Assembly (NCBI GenBank): GCA_027728805.1
Contig: JAQBTN010000003.1
Location: forward strand, 2,107-66,106
Direction: 5' to 3'
Length of the DNA: 64,000 nt
Origin: Actinomycetota bacterium
Lineage (GTDB): Bacteria > Actinomycetota > Actinomycetes > Mycobacteriales > Mycobacteriaceae
The number at the start of each line of letters is the position of its first letter. Position 1 is the first letter of the stretch. The notes below the pieces were generated by a model. The model had not been told where the DNA came from. It saw only the letters and a program-made list of their open reading frames with translations, and ran no database searches. Below are positions 944-39,707 of the stretch, piece by piece. Both the position numbers and the translations under genes were made by a program.

Positions 944-3922
944 TCAGCCGACACCCTTGGTGAACGCCGACCGGGCCGCAGCCGAGAGCCTCCTGTACTT
1001 GCCCGTATCGGCATCCAGGTACCAACTGTTACGTCCGGCCTTGGGCACCCCGGCCGCGCGCAGTGCCGAGACCACCGGGCGGTAGGACGCGCTGACCGCG
1101 AGGTCCGCCACCACGTGCACGACGTCCGGCGGCAGCCCGACGGGCATGTTCGCCACCGCCTCGCCGATGTCGGCGGGGGTGACGCTCATCCCCGGCCGCA
1201 CCGTGAGCGCGGTGACGGCCAGGGTCCCGCCCGGCGTCTCCACCCCGTACGTCACCGCCAGGTCGACCGCTCCGATCCTGCCGACCGCATCGGTGATCGG
1301 CGCCGGGAACACCACGCCGCGTGCGGTGCGCAGCAGGCCCGAGCGGTTGCCCAGCAGCCAGTAGTCACCGTCGGCGTCGCGCCAGAACACATACTCGGTG
1401 GAGATCCAGATGTCGCCGGCGGCGAACACCCCGCGCTTCACCGAGGCGGTCGGGTCGATCGGCCCCCACGGTTTGGCCAGCAGGATGCCGGTTTCCTCGC
1501 GACCCGCGAGCCTGACGAACCCGCGATTGTCCTCCAGGATCAGGTCTTCCTCCGGGTCATAGGCGCCCAGTTCGACCTCGCCGCCGCCGGGCAGCGGCCG
1601 GCCCTCGCTGCCCACCTTGAGCCCGGCGACGTTGGCCAGCACCGCCTGACCGTCGGAGGTGGCGAAGAACTCCACGATCTTGGCCGGCGCGAACACCTTG
1701 AGGATTCGCTCCCATAGTCCGGTCGGCATGCCCGAACCCATGAACAACCGGATCGGATTGTTGCCCGACAGGGTGAAATTGGGGTCGTCGATGACCTCCC
1801 GCAGCATCGACCAGGTGTAGGTGACCACCGAGACGCCGTACTGGCGAACCTCGTCGAGGAAGCGCTCCGGGCACAGTCCCCGGGACAACGCGATCCGCGA
1901 ACCGGCCACCACCGAGCCACCGAGGCTGACCAGCAGGCCGGACTGGTGGTGAAGGGGCGTCAGGCAGTAGACGGTGTCGTTGCGGCTCAGCGCGGCCGCG
2001 GATGCGGTGCCGAAGGCCGACAACGCCCAGCGGTAGTTGGTGATCTGCTTGGGCACCAGTTCCCCGCCGCCCACGGCGTTGAACACCACGAACGCCACGT
2101 CGCGGGCGTAGGCCGGGTTGGGGCGGTACCACCCCGGCAACTCGACGGCGTCGGGGTCGATCTGTTCCATATCGATGACGGCGCTGCCCGGCGGAACGTC
2201 GAGATGCCGATTCTCGCCGCCGCCCAGTACCAGCGTCTGGACCGGCAGTCTGCCGGCCGCCGGGAGATTGGCCGGGTCGGTGATGATCTCGGTGACCCCG
2301 CTGAGCCGGGTCGCCTGCTCGAGGTCGGCGTCCGGCGGCATCAGGACCGCGACCGCACCCAGTCGGGACAGCGCCGCGATGGCGACCAGGGCACTCGGGC
2401 GGGTGTCCATCAGCACCCCCACCCGGCTGCCCTGGCGAACCCCGACCTCGATCAGTCCTCGCACCACGTTGTCGATGCGCCGGTCGACCGCCCGATAGGT
2501 GTGCACCCGCCCGTCGAACAACAGGAACTCACCGTCGGGCGCCGCTTCGGCCTGCTCGGAGATGATCCGGCCCAGCGAGATTCGGGTGTGGTCGTTGATC
2601 TGGCCGAGGCGCACCAGACGGGGCAGCGTGCGCGCTGTTTCGATCGCCAGTGTCCGCACCGAGAGGTTAGCCGCGACAACGGCGTCCGCCGCGCCCCTGG
2701 CCAGCGAGGTCGCCAACTCCGCGGCGTCGGCGACGCCGAGCATCAGCCGGGTGTTCAGCGGTACGCCGCCCGATTCGGCGTCATCGGGTGCCATCTCCTT
2801 CATCAGCGCGATATTCGCCGGGCGAGGCTCCCGGCCGGCCACCCACAGCACCCAGTCGGCCACCGTGGGCCAGGTATTGGTGGCGGCTTTCGATCCCACG
2901 ACCAGGCCGAAGTGGCCCGCCCTGATCATCACCTCGTAGACATCCGCGTTGGGCGCGGCCCGTTTGATGCCGCGCACCGCAGGCGGCTGCCCGATATCGT
3001 CGACCTCGCCGACGAAGGCCAGCACCGGGCAGGTGATATCGGTCAACGTCACCAGCTGTCCCTGGACGGCGAAGCCGCCGGTCATCATCCGGTTGTGGGT
3101 GACGAACTGCTTGAGCAGTTCGGCGACCGCCGGGCCGGACCAGGCGATCCAACCTTCTCGGTCGAGAAAGCGCCGCTGCTGCTCCCGCGGCAACAGCGCC
3201 TCACGGTCATGAAGTTGGAACAGGAACTCAACGCGAGACTTCGCGGTCTTGAGCGGGTCCAGCATCTGGAAGCCGGCGCGGGCCAGCCAACCCGGGATGT
3301 CGATGTGGTTGAAGACGTGATCGGCCAGGAAATCGGCCAGTCCCACAGCCATGTTGGTGGGCAGGCCACCGGGCAGACCGGCCAGGGTGTCGACCGGCGA
3401 GCCGAATGTCACGATGCTGGCGACGTCCTTGGAACGGCGGTAGGCCACGGTCTGGTAGCAGAACATCCCGCCCTGGGAGTAGCCGGCGACGTGAACGCTC
3501 TGCCCGGTGAGGTCCTTGATGGTGTCGATGGCCTGGCTCAGGGCGACAATATGGTCGGTCAGGGTGCGCTCCATGCCGCCCTCGACCTCATCGGGCGAGC
3601 CGTAGTCGATCACCCAGGTGTCCAGGCCGGCGGCATGCAGGATGCCGACGGCACCGTCTTCCCTGGTGACATCCCACATGTTGGCCGACATCATCATCGG
3701 GTGCACCATCAGGACCGGCGGGCCGGCTTTGGCCTTGCCGGGCCGGTTGTCCGGCGGGAAGTACCGCCGGAGTTTGTACATCGGGGTGCTCTCGACGATC
3801 TGGAACGGCGAGGGCACCGCACCGGTGTCCAGTCCGCCGAAACGCGCGACCTCGTACCCGTTCTGGGCGGTCGCCACAAGGCGCTCCAGCGGTTTGGTGA
3901 GTGCCGAAAAACCTAGATCCAC
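944..3922 (-). CDS. Bifunctional alpha/beta-hydrolase + long-chain acyl-CoA synthetase (Rv1683-like)
   Basis: GYSQGG nucleophile elbow, GHFG His motif, C-terminal AMP-binding-like region; start set to GTG 3922 (VDLGFS) after GGAG. Confidence 0.9.
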   Translation of the reverse strand: MDLGFSALTKPLERLVATAQNGYEVARFGGLDTGAVPSPFQIVESTPMYKLRRYFPPDNRPGKAKAGPPVLMVHPMMMSANMWDVTREDGAVGILHAAGLDTWVIDYGSPDEVEGGMERTLTDHIVALSQAIDTIKDLTGQSVHVAGYSQGGMFCYQTVAYRRSKDVASIVTFGSPVDTLAGLPGGLPTNMAVGLADFLADHVFNHIDIPGWLARAGFQMLDPLKTAKSRVEFLFQLHDREALLPREQQRRFLDREGWIAWSGPAVAELLKQFVTHNRMMTGGFAVQGQLVTLTDITCPVLAFVGEVDDIGQPPAVRGIKRAAPNADVYEVMIRAGHFGLVVGSKAATNTWPTVADWVLWVAGREPRPANIALMKEMAPDDAESGGVPLNTRLMLGVADAAELATSLARGAADAVVAANLSVRTLAIETARTLPRLVRLGQINDHTRISLGRIISEQAEAAPDGEFLLFDGRVHTYRAVDRRIDNVVRGLIEVGVRQGSRVGVLMDTRPSALVAIAALSRLGAVAVLMPPDADLEQATRLSGVTEIITDPANLPAAGRLPVQTLVLGGGENRHLDVPPGSAVIDMEQIDPDAVELPGWYRPNPAYARDVAFVVFNAVGGGELVPKQITNYRWALSAFGTASAAALSRNDTVYCLTPLHHQSGLLVSLGGSVVAGSRIALSRGLCPERFLDEVRQYGVSVVTYTWSMLREVIDDPNFTLSGNNPIRLFMGSGMPTGLWERILKVFAPAKIVEFFATSDGQAVLANVAGLKVGSEGRPLPGGGEVELGAYDPEEDLILEDNRGFVRLAGREETGILLAKPWGPIDPTASVKRGVFAAGDIWISTEYVFWRDADGDYWLLGNRSGLLRTARGVVFPAPITDAVGRIGAVDLAVTYGVETPGGTLAVTALTVRPGMSVTPADIGEAVANMPVGLPPDVVHVVADLAVSASYRPVVSALRAAGVPKAGRNSWYLDADTGKYRRLSAAARSAFTKGVG

Positions 3923-27261: not shown

Positions 27262-30162
<2,901 letters not shown>

Positions 30163-30168
30163 CCGCCC

Positions 30169-30191
30169 ATGCTATGCGCCCGCCCCGACAG
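30169..30191 (-). promoter_or_regulatory. RecA-NDp (PafBC-type) DNA-damage promoter of uvrA, leaderless
   Basis: CTGTCGGGG-N8-TAGCAT, 6 nt before GTG; fits tTGTCRgtg-N8-TAnnnT. Confidence 0.7.
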
Positions 30192-30207
30192 CAGTAACGT
30201 GGCGTTC

Positions 30208-30885
30208 ATGACAGTCGTCGACGACACTTACACCGGTCATGTGGAGTCCCAGACCGCAGCGCGGCGCACCCTGCCGGGGGTGAGCATCATCAAGATGTCG
30301 GTGGGCCCGATGGATAACAACGCCTACCTGCTGACCTGTGCGAAGACCGGCGAGTCACTTCTGATCGACGCCGCCAACGACCCCGCGCTGCTGGTGGATC
30401 TGGTGGCCGAACAGGCGCCGAAACTGGAGTTGATCGTGACCACCCACCAACATATGGATCACTGGCTGGCGCTGGAGGCGGTCGCGGAATCGACCGGTGC
30501 CCCCACCGCTGCCCACCCACTCGACGCCGACGCGCTGCCGGTCAAGCCTGCCCGGTTGCTGGCCGGCGGCGAGGTGCTCGAGGTCGGGGATCTCACCTTC
30601 GACGTCATCCACCTGCGTGGGCACACCCCCGGTTCGGTGGCGCTGGCATTGCGGCCCGCCGGCGAGCGGACCGCGGTGCAGTTGTTCACCGGGGACTGCC
30701 TGTTCCCCGGCGGTCCGGGGCGGACGACAACGCCGGAGGAGTTCGATTCACTGATGACCGGCCTGGAGACCTGGGTGTTCGACGTGTACGGGGATGACAC
30801 TGTCGTCTATCCGGGACACGGCGATGACACCACCCTCGGCGAGGAGCGGCCCCGACTGGCTGAGTGGCGCGAGCGAGGTTGGTAA
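30208..30885 (+). CDS. MBL-fold metallo-hydrolase, glyoxalase II-like (Rv1637c-like)
   Basis: THQHMDH, GHTPGS, TGDCLFPGG, YPGHG metal motifs; TAACGT -10 seven nt before ATG. Confidence 0.93.
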   Translation: MTVVDDTYTGHVESQTAARRTLPGVSIIKMSVGPMDNNAYLLTCAKTGESLLIDAANDPALLVDLVAEQAPKLELIVTTHQHMDHWLALEAVAESTGAPTAAHPLDADALPVKPARLLAGGEVLEVGDLTFDVIHLRGHTPGSVALALRPAGERTAVQLFTGDCLFPGGPGRTTTPEEFDSLMTGLETWVFDVYGDDTVVYPGHGDDTTLGEERPRLAEWRERGW

Positions 30886-30934
30886 CCGCGCTCAATACAG
30901 CTCCCTGGTCGGCTTCGCTGCCTAGGATTCGGGC

Positions 30935-31975
30935 GTGATCAAGGAATCTCGGGCCGTTGGTATCCACGAGCACGGCGATGCCGACGCCCTCGTGAACGGC
31001 ACGGTCGAGGTGGGAGCGCCGGGCCAGAGCGAGGTGGTGGTACGAACCAGTGCTCTCGGGGTCAATCCGGCGGACATCTACTTCCGGTCAACCCCGTGGG
31101 AGGAAATCGCGCAGTCGTTGCCTAAGCAGATTCCTTCTTCGGGATCGCTGCGAGTCGTGGGGGCCGACTTCGCCGGGGCCATCGAATCCGTCGGCACCGA
31201 AGTCCGTGGCTGGTCGGTCGGCGATGAGGTTTTCGGCTCGGCCTCGGCGATGGCCGCGACTGGGGCATCGAGCGAGTACATCGTCGTCGATGCCCGACTC
31301 CTCGCCCCTCTCCCGAAGGCCCTAAGCCCAGACCGGGCGGTGGCCTGGCCGATGGTTGGAATCACCGCGTGGGAGTCGCTGTTCGATGTCCTAAGGATCA
31401 GAACGGACGGAGCCGACAGCGGGGCTTCCTTGTTGGTCATCGGTGCTACCGGCGGAACCGGTTCGGCGGCAGTCCAACTGGGCAAGACACTGGCTGGCGT
31501 TTCTGTGACCGCAACGGCAGGTTCGGAGTCCGGCAGATCGTGGTGCTTAAGTCTCGGTGCCGACGCAGTCGTGGATCACCGCAGGCCGCTGACAGACCAA
31601 TTGCCGGACAGCACCTTCGACTTCATCGTGTGCTGTTCGTCGGCAGCGACTTACCTTGACACCATGTCGCAACTGATCGCGCCGTTCGGTCACATTTGTG
31701 CGGTCATGGCCGATCTCGATCCGGTGCCTTTCGGCGGTCTGCGCCTGCGCTCGGCCAGCTTCGGGATGGAGTTCATGGGCCTGCGTTCGATGGGGCCGCA
31801 GATAGAGAAGCACGGCGCGATCCTCACCCAGATTTCGCATCTCATCGACGAGGGTCGGCTCGCCGACCTCTCTGCCCAGCGGCTCAGCCCCATCAATGCC
31901 GACACCCTGCGTCGCGCCCACAGACTGGTCGAACAGGGCGGCCAAGGCAAAGTGACGATCTCGCAATGGCTGTAG
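30935..31975 (+). CDS. MDR-family NADPH:quinone oxidoreductase / zinc-type alcohol dehydrogenase-like protein
   Basis: GVNPAD, GADFAG, ITAWESLFD, IGATGGTGS; no Zn-binding Cys/His set; TAGGAT -10 six nt before GTG. Confidence 0.88.
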   Translation: MIKESRAVGIHEHGDADALVNGTVEVGAPGQSEVVVRTSALGVNPADIYFRSTPWEEIAQSLPKQIPSSGSLRVVGADFAGAIESVGTEVRGWSVGDEVFGSASAMAATGASSEYIVVDARLLAPLPKALSPDRAVAWPMVGITAWESLFDVLRIRTDGADSGASLLVIGATGGTGSAAVQLGKTLAGVSVTATAGSESGRSWCLSLGADAVVDHRRPLTDQLPDSTFDFIVCCSSAATYLDTMSQLIAPFGHICAVMADLDPVPFGGLRLRSASFGMEFMGLRSMGPQIEKHGAILTQISHLIDEGRLADLSAQRLSPINADTLRRAHRLVEQGGQGKVTISQWL

Positions 31976-32000
31976 GAACACCGGTCACCAGCGACCCCCG

Positions 32001-32184
32001 GTTCCCGGGCGGCCCTGGGCGGACAACAAATCCGGCGGAGTTCGACTCACTCATGACCGGCTTGGAGACCGAGGTGTTCGGGGTCTACGGCGACGACACC
32101 GTCGCCTACCCGGGTCATGGCGACGACACCACGTTGGGCGAAGAGCGGCCTCGGCTCGCGGAGTGGCGCGAGCGCGGCTGGTGA
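32001..32184 (+). repeat. MBL 3'-end copy 1 (type A, intact frame, 60 codons)
   Basis: FPGGPGRTTNPAEFDSLMTGLETEVFGVYGDDTVAYPGHGDDTTLGEERPRLAEWRERGW, 55/60 aa identical to the active C-terminus. Confidence 0.97.
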
Positions 32185-32939
32185 TCGCCCGACGGGTGTT
32201 CGACGCGCACCTGCACATCATCGACCCCCAGTTCCCGTTACAGGAGAACAACGGCTACCTGCCGCCGAAGTTCACCGTCGATGACTACCTCAACTGCATC
32301 GCGCACCTCGGCATCAAGGGCGGTGCTGTCGTCTCCGGCTCGTTCCAGGGCTTCGACCAAACCTACCTCCAAGCGGCACTGGCTGCGCTGGGGCCGACGT
32401 TCGTCGGAGTCACTCAAATTCCCCACGAGACAGCCGACGCCGAGATTCAACGCCTGGACTCAGTCGGCGTGCGTGCAGTCCGATTCAACGTCCGCCGGGG
32501 CGGCTCCGCCGACCTGGGCCACCTTGATCGCCTCGCCCGCCGTGTCCACGAGATTGCAGGCTGGCACGTCGAGCTTTACATCGACTCCCGCCAACTGCCC
32601 GATCTGCACGCAACCTTGTCGAAGCTACCTGCGGTGGCCATCGACCACCTGGGCTTGAGTTCTGAGGGACTCCCGCACCTCCTTCGCCTCGTCGAGGTAG
32701 GCGCGAGGGTGAAAGCCACCGGGTTCGGACGGATTGACCTAGACCCCGCCGACGCGATGCGTCGCATCCTCGACATCAACCGCCATGCCCTCGTCGTGGG
32801 CACCGATCTTCCTTCAACCCGCGCGCCACGACCGTTCAGCGACGACGACCTCACCTCGCTCGCCGACTTCCTTGACCCTCGGGAATTGGAGGACACACTC
32901 TGGAACAACGCAGCCACGCTCTACCGGCTGGATCAGTGA
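32181..32939 (+). CDS. Amidohydrolase family protein (Amidohydro_2, 2-pyrone-4,6-dicarboxylate lactonase-like)
   Basis: FDAHLH, AVRFN, IDHLG, GTDLPSTRA; GTG overlaps the TGA of copy 1. Confidence 0.88.
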   Translation: MIARRVFDAHLHIIDPQFPLQENNGYLPPKFTVDDYLNCIAHLGIKGGAVVSGSFQGFDQTYLQAALAALGPTFVGVTQIPHETADAEIQRLDSVGVRAVRFNVRRGGSADLGHLDRLARRVHEIAGWHVELYIDSRQLPDLHATLSKLPAVAIDHLGLSSEGLPHLLRLVEVGARVKATGFGRIDLDPADAMRRILDINRHALVVGTDLPSTRAPRPFSDDDLTSLADFLDPRELEDTLWNNAATLYRLDQ

Positions 32940-32952
32940 CTAGCGATTCCCG

Positions 32953-33136
32953 GTTCCCCGGCGGCGTCGGAAAGACCTGGGAGGAAGGCGGTTTCGAGCA
33001 ACTGCTGGGCGACGTGTCCAGCCGGCTGTTCGATGCCTACGGTGATGACACCGTCGTCTACCCGGGCCACGGCGACGACACCACCCTGGGCGCGGAGCGT
33101 CCACACCTGGCGCAGTGGCGCGAGCGCGGCTGGTAG
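32953..33136 (+). repeat. MBL 3'-end copy 2 (type B, intact frame; ORF 32936-33136)
   Basis: FPGGVGKTWEEGGFEQLLGDVSSRLFDAYGDDTVVYPGHGDDTTLGAERPHLAQWRERGW. Confidence 0.97.
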
Positions 33137-33217: not shown

Positions 33218-33505
33218 TCACCCGATAGGTGGTCCCGCGGGAATAACCAGACCGCCCCCCGCCGTGACTACGGGGCCACCGTCGAGCGCCGGAGCGACGG
33301 CAATTTGGGGTGGCCCGCCGTCGGCTGGCACTACGACGTCACCGGGCTGGTAGCCGCCGTCACCAGAGTTCATCATGCAATCAAGAGAGGTCGGGTCAAA
33401 CATGCAGTCGTCGGCAAGGCTGGTCGGTGCTAGTGCAACTCCGACCAATGGCAGTGCGGCAAGCGTGAGACCGGCGGCCACACGGCGGTAACGGGAGGTA
33501 TTCAT
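33218..33505 (-). CDS. Small secreted hypothetical protein, 95 aa
   Basis: Signal peptide ending SLA-DD, two Cys, Gly/Pro-rich; TATCAT -10 six nt before ATG. Confidence 0.75.
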   Translation of the reverse strand: MNTSRYRRVAAGLTLAALPLVGVALAPTSLADDCMFDPTSLDCMMNSGDGGYQPGDVVVPADGGPPQIAVAPALDGGPVVTAGGGLVIPAGPPIG

Positions 33506-33620
33506 ATTCAGATGATAGGGGCTGTGACCTGCTCGGGAGCGGGGTTCGCAGATGACGCAACATGGTCGAGTCGAAGTCGTCGGCCGTGAAACACGCTGTG
33601 GTGGAGGTGGTGCCGCTGGC

Positions 33621-35051
33621 CTAAACGATCAGTTCGAAGTCAGGCAGGCTGAAGGTCTTGTCGAAGAACGGTTGCAAAGGCGCATAGAGGCGGAAGTAGA
33701 CGAACCAGCCGTCATCGCCGGTGGTTTTCATGTAGTTCTTCTCGAAACCCTCAGGCGCCTTGGCGCCGACATAGAGATCGACGCTGCCGTCGGGGTTCTT
33801 GACGAGATCCGGTAGGCGGCTGTCCAGGTTTGCGCTGCGGATGTCGGTGCCGCCGTTGTCGTAGGGGCGGCGGGTGTTCTCGCTGTAGAGGGTCAGCGCC
33901 CAGAACTGGCCCACCGGAACGTCTTTGGGGACCTGGAGCCGGTAGGTCTTGTCGGCACGCAGCAGATTGCCCTTGTTGTCGCGTTTGGTGGTCATGTACA
34001 CCTGTCCCGCGCCGACCGTCGGGTTGACCATGCCTGTGCTGGAGCCCACCGCCTCGTAGAACCAGGTGACCCGCTCGTCGAGTTCGAGGCGGGTGTCGGT
34101 CTCCTGCTCGAGGGAGAAATCGAAGCTCTTGTACCAGGACGTGCCGGGCCAGTACGGCTCGGCGAATCGGGGATTGACCTGGAGGTTGCGCGCCATCAAC
34201 TCGCCCATCGCCGCTCCCTTGAGCAGGATGCTTCGTTGGCGCGCGTCGGGGTCGAATGTCTTGCCCTTGTCGATACCCAGCGGCAGCAGCATCGCCATCC
34301 AGGTCTTGTCCACCGGCCGAACCGGCTCGGTATTTACGACAGCGGCCAGCGTGCGCCAGTAGTCAAGGCCGCGCGGTGCGGTTGCGCTCCACTCGACGTC
34401 TTTGTCCTCGATGAACCGCGAGGTCGCCAGCGGCTGGCCGACCCGGCCCATTTTCATCGTCAACTTGAACGAGTCGTAGTAGGACGGGTCCTTGTCGAGG
34501 ATGCGCAGCAGCACGCCGATGTTGTTCGTCGCGCTCTGGCGCACGTAGTAACCGGGCCGATCGAAGGTCGCGGGGTTCTCCTCGGGGCCGACGATGATGT
34601 ACTTGCCGCCCTTGCCCTGATCTGGACCGGTCAGACCGAGATCGGCGACCGGACGTTGCCAGAAGTCCATGACACCGCCAGCGGTCTGCCCGGCTGGGTA
34701 CTCGATCTCCAGTGGCCCGTTCTTGAGGCTGATGAAGTTGAAGATGTAGGGCGTGGTGAGGTTGGCCGTGACGATCCCGCGCTTCTCCTTCAAGGAGCGC
34801 AGCACGACGAAATCGGTCTCCCCGGTGACGCCGTAGGCCTCGGCCTGCCGGTCGCGCCAGGTGGTCACGCTGACCAGCGGAGTGCTCCACAAGTAGCACT
34901 GAGCGGCCCGTTGGTAGTCCATCTCGTCGTAAAGCCGCTTGGCGGCATCGTCGTCGAAATAATTGTCGACCAGCGTGATATCACCGACCGGGGTCGAGAT
35001 GACTTCCTTCCCGTGCAGTGTGGCCTTCTCAAGCGGTATCCCCTGCGTCAT
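33621..35051 (-). CDS. DUF1254/DUF1214 domain-containing protein
   Basis: TANLTTPY, DFWQRP..DLG..GPD.G.GG, FWALTLY, NPDGSVDLY, YFRLYAP; start uncertain (35051 or 35096). Confidence 0.85.
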   Translation of the reverse strand: MTQGIPLEKATLHGKEVISTPVGDITLVDNYFDDDAAKRLYDEMDYQRAAQCYLWSTPLVSVTTWRDRQAEAYGVTGETDFVVLRSLKEKRGIVTANLTTPYIFNFISLKNGPLEIEYPAGQTAGGVMDFWQRPVADLGLTGPDQGKGGKYIIVGPEENPATFDRPGYYVRQSATNNIGVLLRILDKDPSYYDSFKLTMKMGRVGQPLATSRFIEDKDVEWSATAPRGLDYWRTLAAVVNTEPVRPVDKTWMAMLLPLGIDKGKTFDPDARQRSILLKGAAMGELMARNLQVNPRFAEPYWPGTSWYKSFDFSLEQETDTRLELDERVTWFYEAVGSSTGMVNPTVGAGQVYMTTKRDNKGNLLRADKTYRLQVPKDVPVGQFWALTLYSENTRRPYDNGGTDIRSANLDSRLPDLVKNPDGSVDLYVGAKAPEGFEKNYMKTTGDDGWFVYFRLYAPLQPFFDKTFSLPDFELIV

Positions 35052-35161
35052 CGCCACCCTACTTCGGATTGTCTGCTGTTTGCTGGTCGCGTTCATTTCT
35101 ACCGCATTGCCCTGCTTCGGATCGAAGGGAATCCATTTCCCAGGTTGCGAGCTGACTTCGG

Positions 35162-35246
35162 GTTCCCCGGCGTGACTGGGCGGAGAACAACGCCCGATGA
35201 GTTCGATTCGTTGATGACCGGACTGGAGAGTCGGGTGTTCGGGGTC
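35162..35246 (+). repeat. MBL 3'-end copy 3 (type A, truncated after about 28 codons)
   Basis: FPGVTGRRTTPDEFDSLMTGLESRVFGV, then similarity is lost. Confidence 0.9.
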
Positions 35247-35447
35247 TCGGGAGCCTTTGAGGACGACGCTCACTGATCACCCTGGCAGTCGACTGATCAC
35301 CGGGGATCCGGTTCCAGCCTCGCTCCGGTGGTCCATGGACGCAGCCACCAACTCAAGGAAACATGGCTTGTGTCTATTCGGCATTTCAGCGCCGCCCAGA
35401 CTCTGCGTCGACCCAGACACGGAAACTGCGAGTCTTGGGAGAAAACA

Positions 35448-35807: not shown

Positions 35808-35885
35808 GTGCCGGGGGCATCGGAAAGACCTGAGAGCCAGTGGGTTTCGAGCAGCTGCTCGGCGGTTTATCCAGCCGGCTGTTCG
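35808..35885 (+). repeat. MBL 3'-end copy 4 (type B, truncated, in-frame TGA replacing TGG)
   Basis: GIGKT*EPVGFEQLLGGLSSRLF vs copy 2 GVGKTWEEGGFEQLLGDVSSRLF. Confidence 0.88.
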
Positions 35886-36011
35886 CATCTGCGGAAGTGG
35901 CGCCGGTGCGGCTGGTGGACCTCGGTGGCACCCCCTATCGGGGTGAGGGACTGTGCCCTGCTTGATGGCGCATTTGAGTCGGCGGCGGACCGTTCGCTGT
36001 TAACGTAAGTG

Positions 36012-36974: not shown

Positions 36975-37226
36975 TTGCGGTACCCCGGGGAAGGACCGAG
37001 AAGCCAGTCGGCTGCCGTCGCGGCCAAGCCTGTCGAGCAACTGCCCCGGGGGCCTTACCCGGCGTCGGCGGCAACGATCTGGGCGATCGCCGTATTGACC
37101 TTGCTGATCGGGCTGACGCTCGCAGTGCTCGTCCCCGCCGCCCTCTCGTCCGGCGATGCCCCGCGCGAAACTCCCGGCGTGCAAAGCAGTCTCGGCACTG
37201 ACGGCCCCGACGGCGGGAACCGATGA
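36975..37226 (+). CDS. Small membrane protein whose N-terminus overlaps a decayed MBL copy
   Basis: TTG start; one TM helix; TGA overlaps the ATG of the PrsW gene. Confidence 0.45.
   Translation: MRYPGEGPRSQSAAVAAKPVEQLPRGPYPASAATIWAIAVLTLLIGLTLAVLVPAALSSGDAPRETPGVQSSLGTDGPDGGNR
36978..37044 (+). repeat. MBL 3'-end copy 5 (type B, heavily decayed)
   Basis: CGGTACCCCGG core; GGAAGGACCGAGAAGCCAGTCGG vs copy 4 GGAAAGACCTGAGAGCCAGTGGG; TCGAGCAACTGC identical to copy 2. Confidence 0.6.
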
Positions 37227-38257
37227 GCGATCCGGCGCAGTCTCCGTCCTTCACGATTCCGCCTCGGGCCCCGGACCAGTCGGCCACGCCGCGATGGCCG
37301 CTATGGAGTCTGTACGTCGCCGCTGTCCTGAGCGGGTCGGCGATCTTCGTCGCGCGGTTGGCGCCGGCCGTCGCCCAGACCCCGACGGTGACCGCAGTCG
37401 GCGTGCTGGCCTTCGGAGTCTTCGGCGCACTCGTCGCCTGGTTGCTCAGCAGGATCAACTACTTCCGCACCCCGGCGCCGAGGACGGCGGCATTGGCCGC
37501 CCTGTGGGGCGGCGGCGCGGCGATCGGACACGCGTTGCTGGCCAACACTGCGATTCACGATCATTTTGCCGCACAGGGCCGTGTCGGGTCTTGGCCATTG
37601 TTCGCGCCCCTCACTGAGGACCCGGCCAAGGACATCGGCATTGTCATCGTTCTGCTGCTGGCGGGGACCCGACCCCGCAGCGCGCTGGACGGGCTCGTGG
37701 CAGGATCCTTCGTCGGTCTCGGCTTCGAAGTCGTCGAAAGCCTCACCCGGGCGATCAACAACGCGATCTCGCTCCATCCCGAGGGCCAGCGCGACAATCT
37801 CGGGTCACTGGCCACCGATGTGATTCACGAAGTCGTGCGCAACAGCTGGACCGGCCACATCGTGCTGACCGGTATCGCCGGCTTCGGCATCGGATATCTG
37901 CTGACGGCCCGGGATCGCTCGGTAGCGCGTCGCTTAGTGGCGGCCATCGCGTTGATACTCCTGGCCGGCGCCGGGCATCTGCTGTGGAACTCGCATCGCT
38001 TTGGACTTCTCTACGTGCTCGGGCAGTTCGGATTGCTGGCGTTATTACTGTGGTTGATCAGAGTCGGCCGCAGGCTGGAGGCGGCCGTCTATCTGCCCTA
38101 TCTGGCTTACGCACCGCTACCGGCGGATTCAGCGCTGGCGACGTCACGCACCGCAGTGAGGCGACGACGCCGGGCGACAGCGGCCCTGGCGTCGGCGATC
38201 GCCAACGGCGATGCACAGCGTGCACATGAGGCCGCCGACCGTCTGGCTCCGGCCTAG
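37223..38257 (+). CDS. PrsW-family intramembrane protease (variant EDxxK motif)
   Basis: APLTEDPAK, GFEVVES, GHIVLTG, GHLLWN; multi-TM. Confidence 0.85.
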   Translation: MSDPAQSPSFTIPPRAPDQSATPRWPLWSLYVAAVLSGSAIFVARLAPAVAQTPTVTAVGVLAFGVFGALVAWLLSRINYFRTPAPRTAALAALWGGGAAIGHALLANTAIHDHFAAQGRVGSWPLFAPLTEDPAKDIGIVIVLLLAGTRPRSALDGLVAGSFVGLGFEVVESLTRAINNAISLHPEGQRDNLGSLATDVIHEVVRNSWTGHIVLTGIAGFGIGYLLTARDRSVARRLVAAIALILLAGAGHLLWNSHRFGLLYVLGQFGLLALLLWLIRVGRRLEAAVYLPYLAYAPLPADSALATSRTAVRRRRRATAALASAIANGDAQRAHEAADRLAPA

Positions 38258-38271
38258 ACCACCTGAGCTAT

Positions 38272-38293
38272 TATCTGCGTATGAACGCAGATA
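38272..38293. promoter_or_regulatory. Inverted-repeat operator over the kmtR start codon
   Basis: Perfect 9-4-9 repeat TATCTGCGT-ATGA-ACGCAGATA; TATTAT -10 at 38269-38274. Confidence 0.75.
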
Positions 38294-38673
38294 CAGGAGG
38301 ATGCGCCCGCCGGCTGCCGGACGACCAGGTGGACCTGGTGGTCGAGGTGTTCCGAATGCTGGCAGACCCCACCCGCGTCCAGATCCTGTGGGCACTGGTG
38401 CGCCGGGAGATGTCGGTGGGCGACCTGGCCGACCACGTCGGCAAACCCGCCCCCAGCGTGTCCCAGCACCTGGCGAAGCTCCGGATGGCGCGACTGGTCC
38501 GCACCCGCCGCGAGGGCACCACCATCTACTACAGCCTGGACAACGACCACGTCCGACAACTCGTCACCGACGCGGTGTTCAACGCCGAACACGCCGGGCC
38601 CGGAGTGCCGGGCCATCACCGCAATGCCGACGACCTCAGGGTCCTGCATGCCGACACGGCGGCGCCGGCATGA
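38281..38673 (+). CDS. kmtR: ArsR/SmtB metal-sensing repressor, KmtR (Rv0827c)-like
   Basis: LPDDQVDLVVEVFRMLAD, SQHLAKLRMARLV, DAVFNAEHAGPGVPGHH. Confidence 0.88.
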   Translation: MNADTGGCARRLPDDQVDLVVEVFRMLADPTRVQILWALVRREMSVGDLADHVGKPAPSVSQHLAKLRMARLVRTRREGTTIYYSLDNDHVRQLVTDAVFNAEHAGPGVPGHHRNADDLRVLHADTAAPA

Positions 38674-39707
38674 CGCACCAGCCCCACGGCGGCCATACCC
38701 ACGGCCATACCCATGACGCGGGCCATACGCACGACGACGGCCATACGCACGACGACACCGGGCGGTTCGGCCGTTTCGGCGCGGCAATCCGCGAGGTGTT
38801 CGCACCGCACAGCCACGATGCCGCCGACAGCATCGACGGCGCGCTGGAGTCCAGTGCCGCCGGCATCCGTGCGGTGAAGCTGAGTCTGCTGGCATTGCTC
38901 GCCACGGCGGTCGCGCAGCTGGTGATCGTGGCGATCTCCGGCTCGGTGGCACTGCTGGCCGACACCATCCACAACGTCGCCGATGCGCTGACGGCGATTC
39001 CGCTGTGGGTGGCGTTCGCGTTGGGGACCAGACCCGCCACCCGCCGCTACACCTACGGCTTCGGTCGGGCCGAGGACGTTGCCGGACTTTTCGTCGTCGC
39101 GATGATCGCGCTGTCCGCGATCGTCGCCGGGGTGGAGTCGATCCGCAGGTTGGCAAACCCGGTGCCGATCAACCACGTCGGCTGGGTCGCCGCCGCCGGC
39201 CTCGTCGGATTCATCGGAAATGAGCTCGTCGCCGTATACCGCATCCGGGTCGGCCGCCGGATCGGCTCGGCAGCGCTGGTGGCCGACGGAATGCACGCGC
39301 GCACAGACGGATTCACCTCGTTGGCCGTGCTCTTCGGCGCCGGCGGAGTCGCGCTCGGCTTTCCGCTTGCCGACCCGATCATCGGCTTGGTCATCACCGT
39401 CGCGATCCTTGCCGTGCTCCGTTCCGCCGCCCGCGACGTGTTCCGCCGCCTGATGGACGGCGTGGACCCGGCACTGCTGGACAGCGCCGAGGCGGCACTG
39501 GCCGCCGAACCCGGGGTGACCGGGGTCCGCAGCGTCAAAATGCGCTGGATCGGCCACCGTCTGCACGCCGAGGCCGAACTCGACATCGACCCCACCGTCA
39601 CCCTCGTCGATGCACACCGGATCGCCCATGAGGCCGAACACACCCTCACCCACGCGGTGCCGAAACTCTCCACCGCATTGGTGCACGCCTACCCGGCCTC
39701 GCACTGA
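38670..39707 (+). CDS. Cation diffusion facilitator (Rv2025c-like) with His-rich N-terminus
   Basis: GHTHD repeats, ALLADTIHNVAD, ADGMHARTD, VHAYP; ATG overlaps kmtR stop. Confidence 0.92.
   Translation: MTHQPHGGHTHGHTHDAGHTHDDGHTHDDTGRFGRFGAAIREVFAPHSHDAADSIDGALESSAAGIRAVKLSLLALLATAVAQLVIVAISGSVALLADTIHNVADALTAIPLWVAFALGTRPATRRYTYGFGRAEDVAGLFVVAMIALSAIVAGVESIRRLANPVPINHVGWVAAAGLVGFIGNELVAVYRIRVGRRIGSAALVADGMHARTDGFTSLAVLFGAGGVALGFPLADPIIGLVITVAILAVLRSAARDVFRRLMDGVDPALLDSAEAALAAEPGVTGVRSVKMRWIGHRLHAEAELDIDPTVTLVDAHRIAHEAEHTLTHAVPKLSTALVHAYPASH

Follow-up and report, generated by a model that had tools for sequence, protein, structure and literature searches.

The closest described relatives of the locus reported here are the phages of subcluster K5 (Larva, Kratio, Collard, AlleyCat and Edugator) and the small, phiRv1-like prophage-like elements, which share with it the target gene and the core sequence. 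In both, a spare gene tail keeps the target gene intact and displaces the old tail. Three further systems are of interest for comparison. In staphylococci, the SCCmec composite islands and the ccr-less pseudo-SCC elements form recombinase-less tandem modules at the 3' end of rlmH (orfX). The SCC modules are bounded by direct repeats that copy the gene-side attachment sequence and are moved in trans by a large serine recombinase. Integrons recombine attI with attC by the tyrosine recombinase IntI. In the tandem islands at tRNA and tmRNA genes, for example at ssrA of Dehalococcoides with its serine recombinase, successive integrations leave displaced 3' copies of the target gene. For the large serine integrases, attP half-sites have their distal motif about 5 nt more distant from the centre than attB half-sites do. 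The phage-type enzymes of this family recombine only attP with attB, and are not known to recombine attB- or attL-like sites with attB.

The locus was found in a stretch of 64,000 nucleotides (the window), and the genome searched was a Mycobacterium metagenome-assembled genome of 4.03 Mb in 273 contigs. An MBL-fold (glyoxalase-II-like) hydrolase is encoded on the plus strand at 30124 to 30885 (Pfam Lactamase_B, 4e-14), divergent from uvrA on the minus strand (27262-30162, UvrA domains in Pfam). In the sister assemblies L071 and L072, the gene callers put the start of the MBL gene near 30169. The recombination site of the active gene (30685 to 30713, plus strand) consists of the host arm TTCACCGGGGACTGCCTG at 30685-30702, which corresponds to the MBL codons 188-193, and of the core TTCCCCGGCGG at 30703-30713, which encodes Phe194-Pro-Gly-Gly. 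The active tail (30703 to 30885, plus strand) is of type A1 and belongs in the tail tree to the clade associated with mobile elements. The last approximately 60 codons of the MBL gene recur downstream as copies 1 to 4.

The active tail is followed on the plus strand by a module at 30888 to 32012 that is conserved as one block across sister genomes and contains a spacer, a zinc-dependent quinone oxidoreductase (QOR; 30935-31975, Pfam ADH_N/ADH_zinc_N), arm 1 and a core. Arm 1, GTCACCAGCGACCCCCGG, is carried by the QOR unit at 31984 to 32001 and is a degenerate copy of the gene's attB left half-site. The core of the displaced copy 1, TTCCCGGGCGG, is located at 32002 to 32012 and is the crossover region, with the tail type switching from 32013 on. 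Copy 1 itself (32002 to 32184) is a displaced tail of type A1'. The cargo of unit 2 is an amidohydrolase (32181 to 32939, plus strand; Pfam Amidohydrolase_2, 2e-22). Its GTG start overlaps the stop codon of copy 1 (32181-32184) and its TGA the first bases of arm 2 (32936-32939). Arm 2, GTGACTAGCGATTCCCGG, is located with a core TTCCCCGGCGG at 32936 to 32964, and leads into the displaced copy 2 (32954 to 33136), which is of type B, the native type of the clade, and groups with the active tail of L075. The cargo of unit 3 is on the minus strand (33218 to 35051) and comprises a 95-aa ORF (33218-33505) and a DUF1254/DUF1214 protein (33621 to about 35051). On the plus strand, arm 3 TTGCGAGCTGACTTCGGG, the core TTCCCCGGCGT and the truncated type A copy 3 of about 30 codons occupy 35145 to 35252, the tail copy itself being 35163-35252. 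Copy 4 (35811 to 35916, plus strand) is a type B tail with an internal deletion and an in-frame stop; it is real, with the arm and most of the core lost. Further cargo of the array encodes a putative lipoprotein and then an F420H2-dependent reductase. Repeats of arm and core start at 30685, 31984, 32936 and 35145. When the whole genome was searched for the site with up to 6 mismatches, only the gene and copy 1 were found.

In comparison with the K5 phages and the phiRv1-like elements, the active tail and copy 1 of the window fall into the same tail clade, but the window has neither an integrase nor phage genes, its arms are gene-like and of the attB type instead of the P arm AGAGCCTACGGTA, and five units with one or two metabolic genes each are stacked. 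As with the SCC elements, tandem modules are found at the 3' end of a housekeeping gene and each is bounded by a repeat of the gene-side attachment sequence. However, the SCC repeat comprises only the last 15-18 nt or so of the gene, whereas each unit of the window replaces about 60 codons. Also, no Ccr-like enzyme was found, and a mobilisation of the window units in trans is a proposal of our analysis. Like an integron, the window contains a polar array of mostly single-gene, tightly packed cassettes with a site at each 3' end, a fixed crossover that splits the site between neighbours, and older cassettes further away from the entry. Unlike an integron, it has no IntI-type tyrosine recombinase and no conserved attC hairpin, the only repeat being that of copy 1; the docking site is inside a coding sequence and every cassette brings a replacement for the gene tail. 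The row of displaced 3' gene copies resembles the tRNA and tmRNA islands, but here the target is an active-site motif of a protein-coding gene, the units have no recombinase and two junction classes occur.

The segment 31987-32018 of the window was proposed from the sequence to look like a hybrid att site, and the original prediction quoted the codons around it. They are exact for the gene (ACC GGG GAC TGC CTG TTC CCC GGC, 30688-30711), for copy 1 (ACC AGC GAC CCC CGG TTC CCG GGC, 31987-32010) and for copy 2 (ACT AGC GAT TCC CGG TTC CCC GGC, 32939-32962). The segment 31984-32012 consists of an 18-nt arm, followed by the 11-nt core TTCCCSGGCGG (Phe194-Pro-Gly-Gly). In the 18 nt before the TTC, copies 1 and 2 agree at 14 positions, and with the gene copy 1 agrees at 12 and copy 2 at 10. 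The cores of arms 1 and 2 agree at 10 of 11 positions. Relative to the genus consensus TTCACCGGCGACTGCCTG, which arms 1, 2 and 3 match at 13/18, 11/18 and 9/18, the first two copies have 4 derived bases in common, for which our own hypergeometric estimate gives a chance probability near 6e-4. The displaced copies therefore do have a common left arm, as had been predicted. It is not lacking from the gene, as had also been claimed, since the arms have diverged from the same 18 nt of the gene itself. This shows that the arm is a degenerate copy of TTCACCGGCGACTGCCTG.

The CGG or CGGG reported before the core in copies 3 and 5 was found in copy 3, where CGGG precedes TTCCCCGGC (35159-35171), and could not be upheld for a copy 5. 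Near 36978, where this copy had been placed, the best blastn match was 12 nt long (E=0.05) and the local alignment was weak, so that it has no statistical support. The inverted repeat of copy 1 was counted correctly with 11/14 matches over 31988-32018. A special status was not confirmed: repeats of 11/14 with a 3-nt spacer occur at 16 positions of the window, and at 137 positions of the 64 kb with spacers of 0-8. No inverted repeat of 10/14 or better was found in copies 2 and 3. The repeat of copy 1 does not exceed the chance expectation and is evidence for nothing. An attC-like hairpin was rejected as a reading of this repeat, since copies 2 and 3 do not have it and G+C-rich DNA such as this contains many repeats of the kind. 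As a check, it had further been suggested to look for elements elsewhere with the same arm next to a tyrosine or serine recombinase. The exact arm AGCGANNCCCGGTTYCCSGGNGG gave 16 matches among 185,579 species genomes, all in unrelated phyla and by chance, which argues that the exact arm is no conserved end of an element elsewhere. Elements with a recombinase at this site do exist, as described below, and have a different arm.

Related genomes were reached by the homologues of the QOR gene. In L078 (QOR 97% identical), the MBL gene with an A tail is followed by QOR, arm 1, the core and a B tail, and then by entirely different genes. L081 (90%) has the MBL gene with a B tail, QOR, arm 1, the core and a B tail. 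In L075 (92%), the MBL gene has a B tail and is followed by GT2, MFS, a scar, QOR, arm 1, the core, the remnant of a B tail, ArsR and CDF. In L077 (82%), QOR and arm 1 are directly followed by the amidohydrolase, the tail being deleted. The window segment 30888-32012 aligned with 7955-9078 of L075 as one blastn block of 90% identity, which starts 3 nt past the active stop codon and ends at the last core base, 32012. To the right of the core the window has copy 1 of type A (A1'), whereas L075, L078 and L081 have B-type tails; that of L075 is homologous to copy 2 of the window. Since the homology ends at 32012 and different tail types follow, arm and core move together with the QOR on their left and the tail is exchangeable. 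This is in agreement with the proposal that the left arm belongs to the incoming unit. Unit 2 (the copy 1 tail, the amidohydrolase and arm 2, 32013-32949) is a present/absent polymorphism that ends at two cores, and the content of modules varies among the sister genomes. Two assemblies of the same strain, L071 and L072, are 99.985% identical and showed no structural polymorphism.

The position of the crossover was also seen in the arms of the active genes. The window and L075 have the clade-specific GGGGAC in this arm despite their different tail types, whereas the displaced arms have AGC or GGC in its place, indicating that the crossover is to the right of the arm. A crossover at -18 with a host-derived arm was considered and is disfavoured by the GGGGAC of the active arms and by the co-linearity of arm 1 with QOR, a comparison that involves few bases; several arguments made here draw on stretches of only 18-29 nt. 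Together with the switch of the tail type right after the core, the clade-specific active arms bear out the predicted crossover at or near G|TTC. Our comparison shows that the crossover is located between the last base of the arm and the end of TTCCCSGGCGG. Arm 1 is similar to arm 2, and the tails at the other end of the respective cargo, namely the active tail and copy 1, are likewise similar and both A1, which fits a unit that consists of tail, cargo and arm. Taken together, these results show that a unit is composed of a tail, the cargo, an 18-nt arm and an 11-nt core, whereas the tail that follows on the right is part of the next unit, which is older.

Homologues of QOR (68-97% identical) were observed only in a small clade of environmental mycobacterial assemblies and always within this variable region; among 400 species of the genus no match was found at E<=1e-70. 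Homologues of the amidohydrolase (up to 72% identical) are present in 20 species at other loci, with no flanking tails.

For a survey of the genus, 400 Mycobacterium species were searched with the tail, using one genome per species, and 41 loci were fetched. Displaced tails that start at the core were found just downstream of the MBL gene in about 33 of the 400 species, which makes this core a hot spot of insertion throughout the genus. For the 27 displaced copies that keep the core, the homology to the gene ends at position 0, which is the T of Phe194, or at about -18, and nowhere else. Arms of the position-0 group match the gene at 2-6 of 18 positions and those of the -18 group at 9-18. From -61 to -22 the identity is at background (6-19 of 40) in all 27 copies, and there is no homology upstream of about -21. 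The scattered junctions expected of a homology-facilitated (RecA) insertion were not seen, since there are two discrete left boundaries. Widely varying junctions, which would have spoken against the original prediction, were thus not observed in these copies. At -21 to -19, several arms beside unrelated cargo have a common CCG in place of the CTG of the genes, and the displaced arms therefore have a consensus of their own. In the tail tree, the A-type tails form one clade, which includes the phage and satellite tails (A2), the active tail and copy 1 of the window (A1) and a third group, A3.

The loci fall into two classes. Class I, found in 9 of these species, has an approximately 10-kb phiRv1-like element between the active and the displaced tail. 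Its last gene encodes a large serine recombinase of 482 aa (Resolvase 2e-25, Recombinase 7e-11), the start codon of which is 18 nt from the core, next to the conserved class I arm GTATTCACnnnTnAGAGCCTACGGTA. A terminase large subunit, a WhiB-like regulator and a replication-initiator-like protein are also encoded. This gene content matches that of the phiRv1-like, PICI-like elements that are common in mycobacteria (PMC10654092). Remnants with the same arm and no recombinase were found in L016, L017 and L019. The AGAGCCTACGGTA arm is kept in L017, L019 and L043, where only 0.4-1.3 kb is left or the locus is on a contig fragment. Class II comprises copies 1-3 of the window and loci in about a dozen other species. 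It has the gene-like arm, no recombinase and a cargo of 0.4-3 kb of ordinary genes. In the larger islands with a gene-like arm (L018, L025, L028, L034, L035 and L038), tblastn with serine and tyrosine recombinase queries detected no recombinase, and in the L016 island it gave only a short partial tyrosine recombinase match. The ORF products of these larger islands resemble, by eye, ordinary metabolic and membrane proteins.

With the serine integrase of the K5 phages (gp39 of Larva), the class I recombinase shares 80% identity. The attP of Larva reads GAGAGCCTACGGTA, followed by TTCCCGGGCGG and TCCTGG. Upstream of int, Larva has AGGTATTCACAGCTGAGAGCCTACGGTA, then TTCCCGGGCGG and TCCTGGCCGGACAACAC, continuing as a complete A-type tail that is annotated as gp38 "hydrolase". 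Gene 38, at 2200-2510 on the reverse strand of NC_023724.1 (L082), is a complete spare tail of the host MBL gene that abuts attP, and the same was observed in 11 other K5 records. In the K5 genome paper, a 43-residue gene for the "C terminus of hydrolases" was noted without explanation and no attB was named (PMC5679794). By this comparison, K5 phages and satellites integrate at the core, where they bring in an A-type tail and move the native B-type one out of place. Site-specific recombination accordingly acts at this exact core, which both the elements with a large serine recombinase and the K5 phages use. Among known phages none was found with A1 or A3 tails or with the gene-like arm; the 12 K5 records with the tail all have the phage arm.

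A second lineage of large serine recombinases, 50% identical to the K5 type, was observed in IMG/VR (L086, IMGVR_UViG_3300031473_000041, 1480-3180). Its gene is located beside the same core, a related phage-type arm (ATTCACgtcTGAGAtCCTACcGTG) and a tail that represents a further type (FPGGPGKTGSP...). Some of the elements with a serine recombinase contain a tyrosine recombinase directly downstream of the spare tail (L013 at 1814-2896, L014 and L032). Since it is absent from other class I elements, this enzyme is not the integrase for the site. The left end, the first 110 nt or so past the stop codon of the spare tail, is conserved in L012, L013, L016, L032 and L033 and contains 3-4 CGACATATG-like motifs. 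A regulator or an excision factor could bind to this array of repeats.

No gene for a recombinase with Resolvase and Recombinase domains is present in the array, in the window or in the sister loci. The only large serine recombinase of the genome is encoded on another contig (C30) and is 33% identical; Xer-like tyrosine recombinases are also present. On contig C259, the segment 70336-70575 has a weak, partial match to the C-terminus of a tyrosine recombinase (36% over 84 aa), about 4 kb beyond the end of the window and about 36 kb downstream of the array; it is the nearest match of this kind, and the others are on other contigs.

The geometry of the half-sites was compared with that of an attR. 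The gene and copies 1-3 have a short core in common, TTCCCSGGCGG, directly after which the tail type switches. The left arm, however, is not of the P type: the arms of the window resemble the B-type arm of the gene and not GTATTCACnnnTnAGAGCCTACGGTA. With the TT as the centre, the distal TTC/TTG motif of the two attP half-sites is about 5 nt more distant from this centre than that of the two attB half-sites, at a low overall dyad symmetry (9-10/28). This centre places the end of the attB left half-site at about -18, where the arms have their boundary, which is weak evidence. Judged from the sequence, the window arms would correspond in extent to the gene-side (attB) left half-site, and not to the phage arm. 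As the cassette sites look like attB or attL and not like attP, an enzyme of the K5 type may be unable to move the cassettes.

Taken together, our results show that the segment 31984-32012 is an attR-like recombination joint in a stack of recombinase-less cassettes at one fixed point of the MBL gene. That the cassettes of this joint are also moved by site-specific recombination in trans is the explanation we favour, with some reservation. The central dinucleotide would then be the TT of the Phe194 codon, and the arm would represent the attB left half-site of the K5/phiRv1-type recombinase family. The cassettes would be inserted, excised and reshuffled by a site-specific recombinase acting in trans, which might be supplied by a visiting phage or satellite or be an enzyme of the host, in a way similar to the mobilisation of the ccr-less pseudo-SCC elements. 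RecA recombination between the tail repeats of about 200 bp may add to the shuffling and delete displaced tails.

A lesser but still appreciable probability is given to homologous recombination as the only process. In this case, one old founder event would have created a displaced repeat of arm, core and tail, and RecA would since have acted between the repeats of about 215 bp, either by Campbell insertion of circles or by double crossovers after conjugal DNA transfer. The arm and core together, 29 nt, are the longest block conserved between the A and B tails and would also be favoured by RecA, so that the apparent crossover at the core could reflect this block of identity. Exchange between tails does occur in the clade. 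The active tail of L078 (881-1060) is chimeric: it resembles copy 1 in the 5' part (92%) and the active tail of the window in the 3' part (88%), where a run of 29 nt is identical. In L081, the active and the displaced tails (750-929 and 2045-2223) are 93.5% identical. Both observations point to homologous exchange or gene conversion between tail copies. The lack of a recombinase and the free decay of the displaced sites would also be explained. Arms, cores and tails of displaced copies are decayed or deleted in L077, in L080 and at the scar of L075, and the deletion of the tails to short scars in these three argues against a retained function and against sites that are maintained in a working state. 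The claim that the recombination is site-specific and not driven by homology therefore applies to the core as such, and is only a proposal for the window's own cassettes, since homologous exchange between tails is found in the clade.

Several observations are not easily reconciled with homologous recombination only. In many species, the arm has a sharp left edge (-18 to -21) beside unrelated cargo, an edge with the appearance of a recombination boundary, and no two units share sequence further to the left of the arm, with the exception of L022 and L024. The A and B tails share identical runs of 14-29 nt in their 3' parts, yet copy 1 is of type A and copy 2 of type B throughout. In addition, new cargo without a tail could not be recruited by this route, and QOR has no close homologue in the 400 genomes of the genus at E<=1e-70.

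A more far-reaching version of movement in trans is an integron-like platform for gene capture in mycobacteria, for which a phage attachment site within a coding sequence would be the basis and a recombinase would act in trans. We regard it as a tentative idea, less probable than the general proposal of movement in trans. Here, one or two cargo genes would be combined with a spare gene tail and a spare attB half-site in a cassette that has no recombinase, and such cassettes would enter, leave and be rearranged at the Phe-Pro-Gly-Gly codons of the MBL gene. The recombinase might be a serine integrase of the K5/phiRv1 type that works outside the attP x attB rule, or a host enzyme. The A-type tails would make the site of the gene attL-like and closed to phages, with a harmless decoy attB further downstream.

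It is improbable that copies 1-3 are plain scars of phages or satellites, that is, the attR of K5- or phiRv1-type elements with deleted interiors and a decayed P arm. Such remnants with the AGAGCCTACGGTA arm exist in L017, L019 and L043, and the A-type tails are monophyletic with those of the phages. The arms of the three copies, however, match TTCACCGGCGACTGCCTG at 13, 11 and 9 of 18 positions and not the P arm, whereas class I arms match the gene at 2-6 of 18. The cargo is metabolic, tightly packed and free of phage genes, and no homology to class I elements was found. Least probable is a target-site duplication, with the target cut about 29 nt apart, arm and core duplicated at each insertion and arms 1 and 2 as sister copies, for although these two arms (14/18, core 10/11) are closer to each other than to the gene and have diverged to a degree in keeping with the age of unit 2, a unit also present in L077 (QOR 82% identical), no known mechanism makes 29-bp duplications with a fragment that always begins with the gene tail, the displaced arms are without the host-specific GGGGAC, and the arms of unrelated units share the CCG at -21 to -19 that is absent from the genes.

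The MBL gene is a docking point that collects foreign genes. From sequence alone, the codons 188-200 of this mycobacterial MBL-fold hydrolase beside uvrA are the likely attB of the K5 serine integrase; we found no paper that names the chromosomal attachment site of the K5 phages. The 43-residue "hydrolase" gene of these phages would be explained as the spare gene tail. The same site also collects metabolic cassettes without a recombinase, which differ between closely related environmental mycobacteria. Should a recombinase acting in trans move the cassettes, the locus would represent a type of gene capture that has not been described in Actinobacteria, and the C-terminus of a housekeeping enzyme would routinely be swapped for one borne by phages. 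If only homologous recombination is at work, the locus would be a clear example of phage scars that were turned into portable homology anchors for the gain of genes.

Further downstream in the window, a 498-aa ORF was called at 38211-39707. It spans two genes of L075 (9447-10813), which encode an ArsR-type regulator and a cation-efflux protein, and the call is probably an artefact of the G+C-rich sequence.
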